A DNA stretch of 63,386 nucleotides, counting the filler, from Bonamia ostreae (Eukaryota): assembly GCA_040357525.1 (NCBI GenBank). It is 41 parts of 41 records of this genome, joined end to end, with 100 filler letters (N's around TTAATTAATTAA, not from the genome) between each part and the next. Parts side by side here need not be neighbours in the genome. Positions count along the whole stretch, not along the records: positions 41,892 to 43,337 come from JBDODL010001793.1; 40 more parts are not named here. The stretch is one strand, 5' to 3'. A program made the translations under genes and the position numbers. Numbering within the stretch: the stretch's first letter is position 1; the number at the start of each line of letters is the position of its first letter. The notes under the pieces were generated by a model that was not told where the DNA came from, ran no database searches, and was given only the letters and a program-made list of their open reading frames with translations. Shown piece after piece: positions 17,719 through 43,337 of the stretch.

Positions 17719-17926
17719 TTTTGAATTTAAATTAACGAAAAAAGAGTTGAAATTTATTGAAATTTTGTTATTTCCGGCTATTTCGGATTATTTTTACTTT
17801 TTGTTACCAAAACTTTGATTAAGATAAAAAAGCGTTACCATTCGCAAAGGATGAAATGTTTTTAACTATTAAAAGAGTTTTTCAATTTTCCGTCTTTCAA
17901 AAATATTTTTAAAAATATCACAAAAA

Positions 17927-18001
17927 AGCCCCGTACGGGACTCGAACCCGTGACCAGCAGATTAAAAGTCTGTCGCTCTAAACCGACTGAGCTAACGAGG
18001 C
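17927..18001 (-). tRNA. tRNA-Lys(UUU)
   Basis: GCCTCGT/ACGGGGC acceptor stem, GCTC/GAGC D stem, CTTTTAA loop, ACGGG-TTCGAGT-CCCGT T arm, followed directly by a T6 Pol III terminator; no encoded CCA. Confidence 0.96.
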
Positions 18002-19075
18002 TTACAGATTTGAAAAAGTTAAATTATAAAACATATTTCTATCATCGGCTATAAAATTTGAAAAGTTTATCGGCTCAATAAATTAAAATAATCGGCTCAA
18101 TTAATCAATTTAATGTCTACGAATATTTCAAGTTTTGATAATTTAAATTGAAGGAGATTATTTTGAGAATACGATGTCACTTAATCAATCAATTGTATCA
18201 GGGTGTAACGAACAAGAGATAAAATCAACACAAACTATAAAAAAGCACAAAAAATTTAACATATTTTACATCGACCCAATCAGAACTTCTAGTTATTCCA
18301 GTTTTATTTTTTTATTTTCGACTAATTATCTTTTTCATTTTCGATTTAATTTTCATTTGAACATTTGTTACTAAACATTCAATTTTTTGTCTACAGCAAA
18401 TGGGGCAGATGGTTTGCAAAATAACAAAGTTGATACTTATTCTGGTCTCAACACTGAACCTGTTTACGAAAACTTTAGAAGGCAAACAAATAAACAATCA
18501 GACTGCACAAAGGATGACACACTGTGAAAACTGTAGCTGATGAAAACAAAGAAAATGGATGGACAGNNNNNNNNNNNNNNNNNNNNNNNNNNNNNNNNNN
18601 NNNNNNNNNNTTAATTAATTAANNNNNNNNNNNNNNNNNNNNNNNNNNNNNNNNNNNNNNNNNNNNGGTGGAATCATGTGTCTAGTAGGAGTAACCATCC
18701 TCTGTAGACCGGTTACACCCACTGTGAAATAAAAAAATAATACTATTAATGATGATAATGATAAATAGTATGATAACGATAATTTGATCAAGATAAAGGT
18801 CTCTGTAATCGGTCAACACGTGAATGTGTTCTCTTCTTAGGCACAAGGTACATGTACAGTGTACATGAAGTTAACAGGGGGTTGTGTTTACCCTACTCTT
18901 CATTTTGTATTATTGATCTGTCTTTATGTTTATGACATTAATCACTATTTGTTATCCTTGTTTTTCATGTAAATACTGATCTCATCAGAATATTGAAGTG
19001 ATTAGATACCCCCACTGTTCACCATTAGATAAATAGCGTTATAGTATTCACATGTTTTTACTGCTTGATATCTAG

Positions 19076-40345: not shown

Positions 40346-41791
40346 TGTTTTTTAAATAAATTGAAATTTGTTTTTTACAAAATAGTTTTTTATAAACTTC
40401 TTTAGCGACATGTTTAGAATCGCTTTCAAAATTTTCGAGCAGTTTCAATATAATTTTAACAATCGATTTGGCGTGATCGGATTCAGAACGGAAAATCGGT
40501 CTCGTGATGTCCGTAACGAGCGCAACGAATTCATTTGAAACATTGAGATTAATCAAAAATGTTTCTAAATTTAAAATTTTGCAACTTGCTTTATCGATTA
40601 TGAAATTTCTATTCGATTCGTCTTTGAAATCCAAATATTTGCATATTCCCAATAATTGCTCTTTTTTGTTAAAAAAAATTTGTTTTGGCAAATTTTTGGA
40701 ATAATTGAAAAACTAAAAATAAAGTGATTTGAAATGTTGTCCTCGAGTGTTTTGGCAAAATCTCTCGGGTTAATCAAAACAGAATCCAATTTTGTCCAAT
40801 TTATTGGCTAAATTTTAAGTTTAAAACTTTCTGTTTGTTTATTTGAGCGCAAATGATTTTCCAGAGAAAAGCTTTTTCGTTATCGACTTCGCCAGTAAAA
40901 GGCGGGTTCGATTTTGTGTCCATTTCATGTTTTTCTGCAATGTGTTCTGTTATTATGGTCGCGTCAGTTTCATTTTCTTCCACATCGATCAAACTCAAAA
41001 ACTTCAAATTGCGATTTTTAGGCCAAAATTTGGTTTTTGAAATCGCGATTTGGAAAAATGAATAAAAGTTTAAATTTGACTCAAACAAACTTCTAAGACA
41101 GAACCACAAGAAGGAAGCCAGAAATTTAGCAACATGTCAGAGCATTCCTTTCGAACATCTTCGTTTCGATCGCGAAGTCCGTTTCGCAGAACGTTGTTCC
41201 GCTGCGATATCGATAGACTTTTAATCCCAAGTTTCTCTTTCATCAACGTATAAGCGCTTCCTTTTTGACCAAAATTTCGATTTTAATTTATTCAAATTTT
41301 GCAATTTAAATCTGTGCAATCAAAAATGGAAAAAGCAAAATTTTGCAAAAGTAAATTTAAGGGACTTCGGACCAACTCGGATGAATCTCTTGTTCTTGTC
41401 AAGACATCCGGCAACGTTTTGTTGATGATCCCTATATTTCTTAAACAAGCTTCTCGGACTTTTTTGCTAGGGTCGCCAGTCAACATTTTGTTGAGACGGG
41501 AAGTTATTTTGTCGTTTGGGTCTTGGGGCTGTTGCAACCTGGAAAGGGACGCGATTGCTTGGAGTCTTACGGTGTCCAACGGGTCCTTTAAAAGAGGATA
41601 AACGCTTTTGAACAGAGCGTTGTAGACCGTTTCGCTGTTTTTATTCAAATTTAGATTTTTTATTAAAGTTTTTTCACCTCAATGCAAAATCGTCTGGAAG
41701 GTCGTTAAGGACGACTCCAATTAGTTCCAATGAGCGTAATTTGGGAGTTTTGTTTGAACATTTTGTGAATTTTAGACAAAATCTATTTTTA
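40346..41791 (-). CDS. NCAPG: Condensin I HEAT subunit CAP-G (partial, multi-exon)
   Basis: LKDPLDTVRLQAIASLSRLQ...DPSKKVREACL...TLPDVLTRTRDSSELVRRSAY...GLRDRNEDVRKEC. Confidence 0.92.
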
Positions 41792-41891: not shown

Positions 41892-42095
41892 TCCACATGA
41901 TTTTACCATATCTTCTATCTCACACTTATAAAGATCACATCTCTCTTTCTTAAAATTATAGTAAGGACATGGATCAATACATAGCTCCAGGCTATCAAAA
42001 TACTTTAAGGGAGTATAGCAATATATTCCCATTGGGATATTATAAATTATTTCCCTTCTCTTCTTAAAACTCAACTTCTTCTTAAATAATTTCAT
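41892..42095 (-). CDS. Phage-type Cys-rich hypothetical protein (3' partial)
   Basis: IPMGIYCY...CPYY...C...DMVKSCG pattern, recalled from small hypothetical proteins of large phages; intronless. Confidence 0.6.
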
Positions 42096-42128
42096 AGCAA
42101 TAAGTTACGAAAAAATCACGACATATCA

Positions 42129-42158
42129 TTGCTTCTTTTGTATTATTTTATACTTTTG
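42129..42158 (+). promoter_or_regulatory. Bacteroidota-type sigma-A promoter TTG-N19-TAnnTTTG
   Basis: TTG 42129-31 and TACTTTTG 42151-58, then an A-rich leader without Shine-Dalgarno to ATG 42172. Confidence 0.6.
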
Positions 42159-42171
42159 AAAGAAAAAAAAT

Positions 42172-42543
42172 ATGGAAGATGAAATAAGAAAACAAGTAAT
42201 GAAGAAGATGCTAAAGATATTTATTCTTTGGCAACAAATGGTGTTACATGATACATTTTTGTGTTGTGCCCTTGGTTATGTAACAAATGTAATATCTTAT
42301 TATTCTAAGATAGCTGGATTCATTATAGGAGTAATACTTTGTATTGGTTTTATACATGCAGGGAATAGGAGAATAAGAGATAAGTTTACTGTTGTATTAG
42401 CTCTTAATGTAATTGGATATTGTCTTCTCATTGATATGTTCATCTTTTTCCATCAACCTTATCTAGATCATTCAAATATACTTGTGAATGCTACAGGATT
42501 ATTGTTAGGATTATTTAAATCAAAAGTTAAAGATTATAAATGA
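42172..42543 (+). CDS. Hypothetical multi-pass membrane protein (phage/bacterial)
   Basis: 123-aa intronless ORF with 3-4 hydrophobic segments. Confidence 0.7.
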   Translation: MEDEIRKQVMKKMLKIFILWQQMVLHDTFLCCALGYVTNVISYYSKIAGFIIGVILCIGFIHAGNRRIRDKFTVVLALNVIGYCLLIDMFIFFHQPYLDHSNILVNATGLLLGLFKSKVKDYK

Positions 42544-42556
42544 TTTTATACTTTTC

Positions 42557-42586
42557 TTGGTTTTATTGTATTTTTGTATATCTTTG
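42557..42586 (+). promoter_or_regulatory. Bacteroidota-type promoter TTG-N19-TATCTTTG upstream of a noncoding structured tract
   Basis: TTG 42557-59 and TATCTTTG 42579-86; no ORF of 60 aa or more follows until 43199. Confidence 0.55.
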
Positions 42587-42590
42587 TAAA

Positions 42591-43075
42591 AGTATTTAGA
42601 ATGTTTTAGTTAATATCATTCTTTGAATCCGTTAGTTCTGGAGGTTAAGGATGAGCTGTGGACAAAACAAGTCTGTTAAAAATGTTAATTAACAGACTTG
42701 TAAGTCCATAGTTGTTCCGTCGGAATCGGAATCGCATACAGGAGGATAGTTATACAAGTCTATGAAGAATCACTATCTCTTATCTTATGTTTTTCTTGTG
42801 CCTCAAACGATTAAATGCCTCTGGTTTTATCACCACTTGACTACGACCCAAAAATTTATTCCTTCACAAAAAGACCGCAACGAAGAGACACTACTCTCAT
42901 ACTACAACAATGGTAATGACAAGCGAGGCTTTTATATTTAGGTTCGTGAGCAGACCCTATATTTATTCTCTATTATAAAAGTAAGGAAAGTTTTACTGTG
43001 TTCAAAATCAGCACATTAAAGCGTGAACATATTATATAAGAAGTAAATTATACGATGTTATACTACTTCTTATTA
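42591..43075 (+). ncRNA. Candidate structured noncoding RNA, family unknown
   Basis: Several stems, including a long 42649-42718 hairpin with G-U pairs on the + strand. Locally higher GC; preceded by a promoter-like element. Confidence 0.4.
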
Positions 43076-43198
43076 TCTTTGATTATTTTATACTTACAAT
43101 GTATACATTGTCCTAAAATAGGACAATAAAAATATTTCAAAAAAAAGTAAAAAAAATGAAAATTTTTTTATCCCACTGCATTTTTATATATTTGTTAT

Positions 43199-43337
43199 AT
43201 GAAAGAAACTTTAAGAGGAGTAGCAAAATTATTAACCTGTTGGTTAGGAATTGTATTGATATGTTTAGGAGTATGGGGATTTATTTATGACTTTAATCCA
43301 CTGTGTTTTTTAAATAGAAAGATGTATCTTTGGTGTT
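43199..43337 (+). CDS. Small membrane protein (3' partial), phage/bacterial
   Basis: TM LLTCWLGIVLICLGVWGFIY; a TATATTTG box at 43187-94 lies immediately upstream. Confidence 0.55.

Follow-up and report, generated by a model that had tools for sequence, protein, structure and literature searches.

A conserved gene-free tract with promoter-like motifs and three hairpins as a candidate noncoding RNA in a Bonamia ostreae assembly

One small contig of the Bonamia ostreae genome assembly GCA_040357525.1 (JBDODL010001793.1) carries a gene-free and conserved tract, headed by a promoter-like motif and closed by hairpins, that may give rise to a noncoding RNA of about half a kilobase. The tract was analysed within a window of 63,386 nucleotides (positions 1-63386), which is a pseudo-molecule: about 41 unrelated small contigs, ordered by length from 1461 down to 1439 bases, are joined by linkers of N and the 12-mer TTAATTAATTAA, which occurs 40 times, ~1,550 bases apart and always within N runs. 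Splitting the window at N yields 45 pieces, making up the ~41 contigs. As these ~1.45-kb contigs are unrelated, arguments drawn from the character of "the contig" are void, and no feature is to be read across linkers. The guanine-plus-cytosine (GC) content of the tract contig, 28.6%, is similar to that of the window's other contigs. Two of its open reading frames (ORFs), one Cys-rich and one of 123 amino acids, diverge from a 76-bp spacer, and a third begins beyond the tract (Table 1). A gene-free gap of 655 bp separates the end of the 123-aa ORF, whose stop is at 42543, from the start that follows at 43199. The initial annotation of this DNA had seen no ORF of 60 aa or more in this gap, and indeed the longest ORF with an ATG, GTG or TTG start has 59 aa and the tract holds no convincing one.

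Table 1. Coordinates of the features on the tract contig, counted along the window
Feature	Position	Strand	Description
Contig holding the tract	41892..43337		1446 bp; three ORFs, none matching any family; window neighbours unrelated
Cys-rich ORF	41893..42095	-	Initial 67 codons; truncated by the contig end
P1, promoter-like	42129..42158	+	TTG-N19-TACTTTTG; ends 13 nt 5' of the ATG of the 123-aa ORF
123-aa ORF	42172..42543	+	Small hydrophobic membrane protein
P2, promoter-like	42557..42586	+	TTG (42557-59)-N19-TATCTTTG (42579-86); heads the tract; predicted start ~42592
Candidate small stem	42616..42654	+	42616-23 pairs with 42647-54, enclosing a 4-bp hairpin, 42628-31/42639-42, in the minimum free energy (MFE) fold of 42591-43130
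13-codon mini-ORF	42651..42692	+	Candidate; GGAGG (42640-44) and 6-nt spacer upstream; runs through the 5' arm of H1
H1	42655..42713	+	13-bp perfect core, 42667-79/42689-701; 9-nt loop; -28.6 kcal/mol
Conserved core	42712..42951	+	Richer in GC and C; no excess folding
59-aa ORF	42762..42941	+	Exactly in the conserved core; probably not coding
Divergent segment	42952..43018	.	67 nt with at least 19 substitutions and a deletion of 1 nt, in relatives X3 and X4
H2	43036..43095	+	10-bp perfect stem, 43036-45/43064-73; 18-nt loop, then T-rich tail; candidate terminator
H3	43107..43127	.	Perfect 9-bp palindrome, 43107-15/43119-27; 3-nt spacer; T-run on neither strand
Third small hydrophobic ORF	43199..43337	+	Start only, cut by the contig end

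Promoter-like motifs and hairpins of the tract

The motif that the initial annotation had taken for a Bacteroidota-type promoter is present at the head of the tract (P2), and a second copy (P1) stands before the neighbouring 123-aa gene. Over the 59,346 window bases scanned for it, both strands included, TTG-N19-TAnnTTTG occurs five times, and two of these five sites lie in the tract contig, both on the + strand. With a spacer of N17-21, 13 further matches are found in the mostly eukaryotic rest of the window. P1 and P2 are 76% alike over 33 nt, and partial copies of this repeat occur further at 42540-42555 and at 43073-43095, the latter, a third promoter-like copy, being contained in the T-rich tail of H2. 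According to the account given in PMC7641319, the -7 box TAnnTTTG is a conserved feature of both Flavobacterium and Bacteroides. The motifs of the tract contig support promoters of Bacteroidota type, but do not prove them and name no organism.

Only three stems of the tract rise above chance, with 13, 10 and 9 perfect base pairs (H1, H2 and H3, respectively), and the earlier description of a tract packed with stems cannot be upheld. A perfect stem of 13 bp was reached by none of 1000 dinucleotide shuffles of the tract, and in as many such shuffles the probability of at least three stems of at least 9 bp was 0.001. Perfect stems of at least 10 bp are found at two sites in the tract contig, as compared to 12 in the other 44 pieces (~58 kb). 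Around its core, H1 possesses an outer helix of 9 bp (42655-63/42704-12) that includes two G.U pairs, and it is extendable to ~42627-42730. The stems listed initially are all found in the sequence: the 13-bp repeat, the outer helix with its two G.U pairs and the 10-bp stem stand, while AGAATG/CATTCT, GGAGGATAGT/ACTATCTCT and TGTGTTCA/TGAACATA are at chance level. To note, H3 was missing from that list; it is operator-like and located ~70 nt upstream of the third ORF's start.

The folding statistics lead to the same division of the tract. Compared with shuffles, the stretch 42591-43130 has a folding z-score of -3.29 on the + strand and -1.28 on the - strand. The former value is due to the hairpins: when H1 is held fixed, the remainder is no better than shuffles. 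In a sliding folding scan, the signal is confined to 42612-42771 and 43012-43211. The z-score of 42592-42730 is -6.24 on the + strand and -6.11 on the - strand, that of 43025-43140 (+) is -3.81, and that of 42714-42960 (+) is +1.06. The initial annotation had proposed a hairpin-rich structured RNA of 400-500 nt and had named the comparison with shuffles as a check. Only the regions of H1 and of H2/H3 come out as significant; the body fails the comparison, and with it the claim of a hairpin-rich RNA. What the tract contains is a single strong hairpin on the 5' side, two more on the 3' side, and a body that is unfolded. Furthermore, G.U pairs had been used to choose the strand; as the z-scores of 42592-42730 are nearly equal on the two strands, this argument adds nothing beyond base composition. 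As matters stand, the evidence for a structured RNA reduces to the three hairpins.

Conservation of the tract in related sequences

Four sequencing runs (X1-X4) are listed as holders of the tract. In X1 the pieces are identical to the window and found at a depth of 2-4.5, while the three other runs hold relatives of 87-92% identity. X2 and X3 are metagenome runs from salt marsh, both belonging to the same study; their contigs align to 41893-42157 and to 42506-42963 or 42506-43062. In X4, a contig of 9.8 kb runs collinear with 41893-43319 and departs from it by 155 substitutions and 36 gap letters. Over all relatives, the substitutions number 179, of which 40 are individually listed, and the indels 32, of which 12 are, so that the counts given below are bounds.

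The tract is conserved in relatives from three runs, and the best-kept part is the core. Over 42712-42951, X3 exhibits between 2 and 14 differences in 240 nt (2 listed, at most 12 unlisted), to be compared with 20-21 differences in 261-265 nt for X2 and X3 over the stretch of the Cys-rich gene, and with 16 differences for X3 over 42506-42623. On these alignments, conservation of the core equals or exceeds that of the coding stretch. The core also differs in composition: its GC content is 35-40%, the ORFs having 29-33% and the spacers 18-23%. The boxes of P2 are untouched by the differences that the relatives share, among those listed. Downstream of the core, the 19 substitutions of the divergent segment are common to X3 and X4, the window's version being the odd one out.

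Some of the differences fall within stems. T42620C, present in X2, X3 and X4, changes U.G to C-G in the candidate small stem 42616-23/42647-54 and breaks AGAATG/CATTCT; this small stem is absent from a competing fold of 42592-42730. In X3, C42630T accompanies G42640A in the 4-bp hairpin enclosed by the small stem, which turns C-G into U-A and keeps the pair, as seen in a single contig's loose end. At H1, X3 leaves the 13-nt 3' arm unchanged and shortens the loop by 2 nt; the base after the 3' outer arm passes from T to C, which changes the closing G.U to G-C.

Searches against catalogued sequences have yielded no relative of the tract. Covariance-model searches of the contig with Rfam 15 returned nothing at gathering threshold (permissive best hits of 12-22 bits against thresholds of 45-80), in line with the initial failure to match the tract to a known RNA family. 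The statement that it contains no tRNA or tmRNA also holds: ARAGORN finds in the window only a tRNA-Lys (see below). A DNA pattern of the hairpin had no match in viral, metagenome or genome contigs, and two further DNA patterns had none in viral contigs. Protein-guided searches for the locus, using the Cys-rich ORF, the 123-aa ORF and an alignment (A1), retrieved no relative, IMG/VR included. Phage and plasmid collections gave nothing beyond a 46-nt AT-rich chance match to Staphylococcus plasmids. A match to a Zixibacteria metagenome-assembled genome (37% over 40 residues) was dismissed as low-complexity chance, as it lies in no ORF there. As regards a repeat element, no copy of any part of the tract was found elsewhere in the window.

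A candidate noncoding RNA and its competitors

The explanation that we favour, with a probability of roughly one in three (0.35), is that the tract forms its own promoter-to-terminator unit, giving a noncoding RNA of ~0.45-0.5 kb, on an orphan contig organised like that of a prokaryote or a virus. P2, if it acts as a Bacteroidota-type promoter, would direct a + strand transcript from ~42592. The first ~130 nt of this RNA would fold as one strong extended hairpin, H1, possibly preceded by the small stem, and serve as a 5' stabilising or regulatory element. The core, GC- and C-richer, would remain essentially unfolded and single-stranded and might act by base pairing or by protein binding. The AT-rich H2 and its T-rich tail would then end the RNA at ~0.45-0.5 kb. 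None of the ORFs in the tract resembles the genes of this genome, so that a noncoding RNA is the most likely product. The prokaryote- or virus-like organisation is suggested by the divergent ORFs around their 76-bp spacer, unlike the split ORFs of the eukaryotic contigs.

Several observations weigh against this reading. No RNA run is found among the listed holders, which is evidence neither way on expression, and transcription is something that we infer. An intrinsic terminator scan of the contig returned no site, H2 being left unflagged because of its AT-rich stem (2 G-C pairs) and long loop. Concerning structure, 42731-43030 (+) has a z-score of -0.24, with 69 of 200 shuffles folding equally well, and keeping H1 while shuffling its flanks gives, on the + strand, +1.52 for 42592-42960 and +0.14 for 42592-43085. 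It is unusual for a 0.5-kb RNA to have neither structure nor a recognisable partner; antisense pairing to the neighbouring start regions was considered and rejected, as duplex energies are at shuffle level (z of +0.37, -0.12 and +0.91). The changes seen in the relatives agree with the folding of the first 130 nt, but this agreement is anecdotal and stems from loose ends of single contigs. In X3 the pair G42631/T42639 of the 4-bp hairpin is lost, and A42708T falls in the outer arm of H1, with its pairing partner not visible. The Bacteroidota origin is drawn from the motifs alone; Shine-Dalgarno sites are largely unused by Bacteroidota, and the two GGAGG motifs followed by ATG found here fit Shine-Dalgarno users. 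Lastly, both shared substitutions in the 59-aa ORF are synonymous (42836 CAC>CAT and 42914 GGT>GGC), and the heavy divergence begins at 42952, 11 nt past its stop.

These last two points count for another reading, in which the tract is the mRNA of the small hydrophobic 59-aa peptide with a regulated 5' leader, the mini-ORF and H1 acting as a translational switch. This reading is possible, if rather unlikely. The ORF sits exactly in the conserved core and is preceded by AGGAGGA at 42740-46. It starts with ATG AAG like the neighbouring ORFs, and its N-terminus is hydrophobic like those of the neighbouring small membrane ORFs. Conversely, C occupies 27% of its third positions but 4-7% of those in the three ORFs nearby, and each of the three codon positions is enriched in C. 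It scores 1228 in ESM recognition, a measure in which 91 of 100 proteins of known families attain 2300, and a word-based search among proteins of 32-104 aa found no homologue. X4 harbours 1-nt deletions at 42819 and 42927; as a 1-nt deletion of X4 also lies inside the third ORF, hidden compensating indels are possible in the 59-aa ORF. The spacing between AGGAGG and ATG is long (15-16 nt), and the neighbouring genes do not have such a motif. Genetic codes 4 and 6 offer no convincing frame in the tract. On balance, it is doubtful that the 59-aa ORF is coding.

The leader of such an mRNA deserves a separate description. Two GGAGG motifs stand in the 29% GC tract (42640-42692 and 42740-42764), with ATG 6 nt and ~16 nt on, respectively, and none is found before the three flanking ORFs; the GGAGG of the mini-ORF is AGAGG in X3. 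The 5' arm of H1 contains the 8-mer ACAAGTCT, which is repeated at 42754-61. For the 3' arm (42694-42702), 42753-42761 offers an alternative partner that abuts the ATG at 42762, as seen in the MFE fold without the 5' arm. This alternative fold has a z-score of only -1.47, equalled by 14 of 200 shuffles. A switch between the leader ORF and H1 is therefore a possible lead only, predicted by folding.

The 123-aa ORF introduces a different explanation. This ORF is a real gene, as judged from its one relative: an exhaustive HMMER search of 1.84 billion representatives retrieved exactly one cluster, at 54% identity (E-value of 2.4e-35), with two members, both from Logan assemblies; in the ESM Atlas, it obtains scores of only 0.84. 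The X2 and X3 contigs lose alignment from ~42157 to 42506, which covers this ORF, and their loose ends show a much-diverged version of it. As X2 and X3 do not align over the ORF and its two flanks are ~90-92% identical, it is hypervariable between conserved flanks. The hypervariability looks like cassette exchange or diversifying selection. Accordingly, the tract could be an ordinary spacer of regulatory modules between small ORFans, in which the modules anchor cassette swaps as promoter-early stem-loops (PeSLs) do and the core represents either the remains of a gene or a neutral hitch-hiking sequence. The three promoter-like repeat copies at gene borders (42133-42158, 42540-42589 and 43073-43095) favour such an arrangement, with the hypervariable ORF between the first two and H2 leading directly into the third. 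The left alignment break (42153/42157) coincides with the end of P1, and the body of the tract has no excess structure. Other features are at odds with a spacer: in sequence of 29% GC a neutral one should be more AT-rich than the genes, yet the core is GC-richer than them and at least as conserved as the coding stretch. Furthermore, the right break (42506) occurs 34-50 nt before a repeat copy and not at it, and the contig carries no phage gene. PHROGs, NCBIfam and Pfam profiles and tblastn show no trace of a decayed gene; a decayed copy of a neighbouring gene was specifically rejected, as tblastn of the neighbours against the tract gave no match below an E-value of 0.3. We consider the spacer explanation about as probable as the peptide mRNA: possible, if rather unlikely.

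The tract could also work at the level of DNA, as an origin, as a site of packaging or recombination, or as a small palindromic repeat element, the inverted repeats being extruded as cruciforms or bound by proteins. Indeed, Watson-Crick pairing is perfect in each of the three strongest palindromic stems (13, 10 and 9 bp), H3 being a perfect 9-3-9, and H1 scores equally on both strands. Such an element is very unlikely, as the contig contains no iteron-like direct repeats, the window contains no other copy of the tract, and no replication, integrase or transposase gene is visible within 1.4 kb. Two specific candidates were rejected by eye against consensus features: an integron attC, for which no core sites lie at the ends of H1, and a retron msr/msd, for which no adjacent reverse transcriptase lies within 1.4 kb.

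As a last alternative, the contig could belong to the nuclear DNA of the AT-rich eukaryote that accounts for most of the window, the core being an exon or an untranslated region, the hairpins incidental and the promoter matches due to chance in T-rich DNA. The other contigs mostly carry eukaryotic genes, with matches to MRP-L47, RRM_1, HEAT, Mod_r, Cyt-b5, Metallophos and PSD13_N, and share the GC content of the tract contig. The depth in the best holder, X1, is low, and TTTAG/GTTCGTGAG at 42937-42950 resembles an exon/donor junction, with the divergence cliff just after it. This alternative is judged highly improbable. ORFs of the eukaryotic contigs are sparse and split, whereas here two intact ones diverge from a short spacer; the promoter-like motif is also more frequent here than in the other contigs. 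Moreover, relatives occur at depths of 5-9 in two salt-marsh runs, and also in those of two organisms that bear different names, a better fit to a small-genome microbe or virus.

The three flanking ORFs have no meaningful match in Pfam, PHROGs (E up to 0.1) or NCBIfam. The Cys-rich ORF is probably a real gene, since 7 of the 12 listed X4 differences inside it fall at third codon positions; word-based protein searches at near and longer lengths, together with Pfam, PHROGs and NCBIfam, found no family or homologue for it. The initial label of a phage-like contig is therefore to be abandoned: the window is a concatenation, and the flanking ORFs provide no phage hallmark. Likewise, searches of IMG/VR and of a phage collection for relatives came back empty.

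Returning to the noncoding RNA, a bolder version would have the tract encode a new ~0.5-kb RNA family, from an unsampled mobile element or virus of salt-marsh communities with Bacteroidota-style promoters, the RNA having a conserved and C-rich single-stranded core, and a 5' hairpin combined with a 13-codon leader switch. This version is distinctly speculative. If the core were a functional RNA, it would represent an uncatalogued RNA gene, in a lineage almost without relatives in public protein and genome collections, and a case where composition and conservation indicate an RNA gene while folding energy does not.

Some observations concern other contigs of the window. On the adjoining contig, 40346-41791, pieces of a HEAT-repeat ORF lie in different frames of the minus strand (41292-41648, 41070-41246 and 40801-41109); they look like a eukaryotic gene with short introns, with a resemblance to a condensin-type subunit noticed by eye. 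A tRNA-Lys (anticodon TTT) at 17926-18002, minus strand, is the only Rfam or ARAGORN match in the window. The contig 58869-60308 has a GC content of 41.5%, as against ~30% for the window, and a 335-aa ORF without Pfam match; it may come from a different organism within the assembly.

Comparison with known systems

PeSLs are described in PMC4122927, for T4-like phages, as small composite terminator/promoter sequences that mediate cassette exchange. The composite of H2 and the repeat 43073-43095 may resemble them, in that it seems to be repeated at the borders of small ORFans, one of which is swapped or hyperdiverged. Unlike in T4-like phages, no T4-like or other phage gene is seen here, the promoter type differs and only three copies are visible in 1.4 kb; in addition, the 400 nt of conserved non-ORF sequence between the modules are not explained by PeSLs. 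Membership of the T4-like phages finds no support in PHROGs (no match at E up to 0.1), in the phage collection or in IMG/VR.

In Mimivirus, palindromes are said to mark transcript 3' ends, the so-called hairpin rule. The tract contig has in common with it an AT-rich genome, ORFans and perfect intergenic palindromes of 9-13 bp. It differs in that no giant-virus gene or promoter motif is found here (the Mimivirus promoter AAAATTGA was not seen by eye in the contig sequence) and no relative was found in IMG/VR.

Leader-peptide translational attenuators of the ermC/cat type have, as here, a short ORF that carries a Shine-Dalgarno-like motif and extends into one arm of a hairpin, the other arm being able to pair with the downstream start. 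The downstream ORF of the tract is doubtful and the alternative fold not significant. The logic would also be inverted, since translation of the leader would close the downstream start.

Intrinsic (Rho-independent) terminators share with H2 the succession of a stem-loop and a T-rich run on the + strand; they differ from it by its 2 G-C pairs and 18-nt loop, and from H1 and H3, which lack a T-run. As compared with the Bacteroidota housekeeping promoter (-33 TTTG / -7 TAnnTTTG), the -33 element here is only TTG, and the match is made by sequence alone. In a Bacteroidota host, a promoter of this type would start transcription ~5-8 nt past the -7 box. Shared with that promoter are the two TTG-N19-TAnnTTTG sites on the + strand, one of them correctly placed before a real gene and the other heading the tract.

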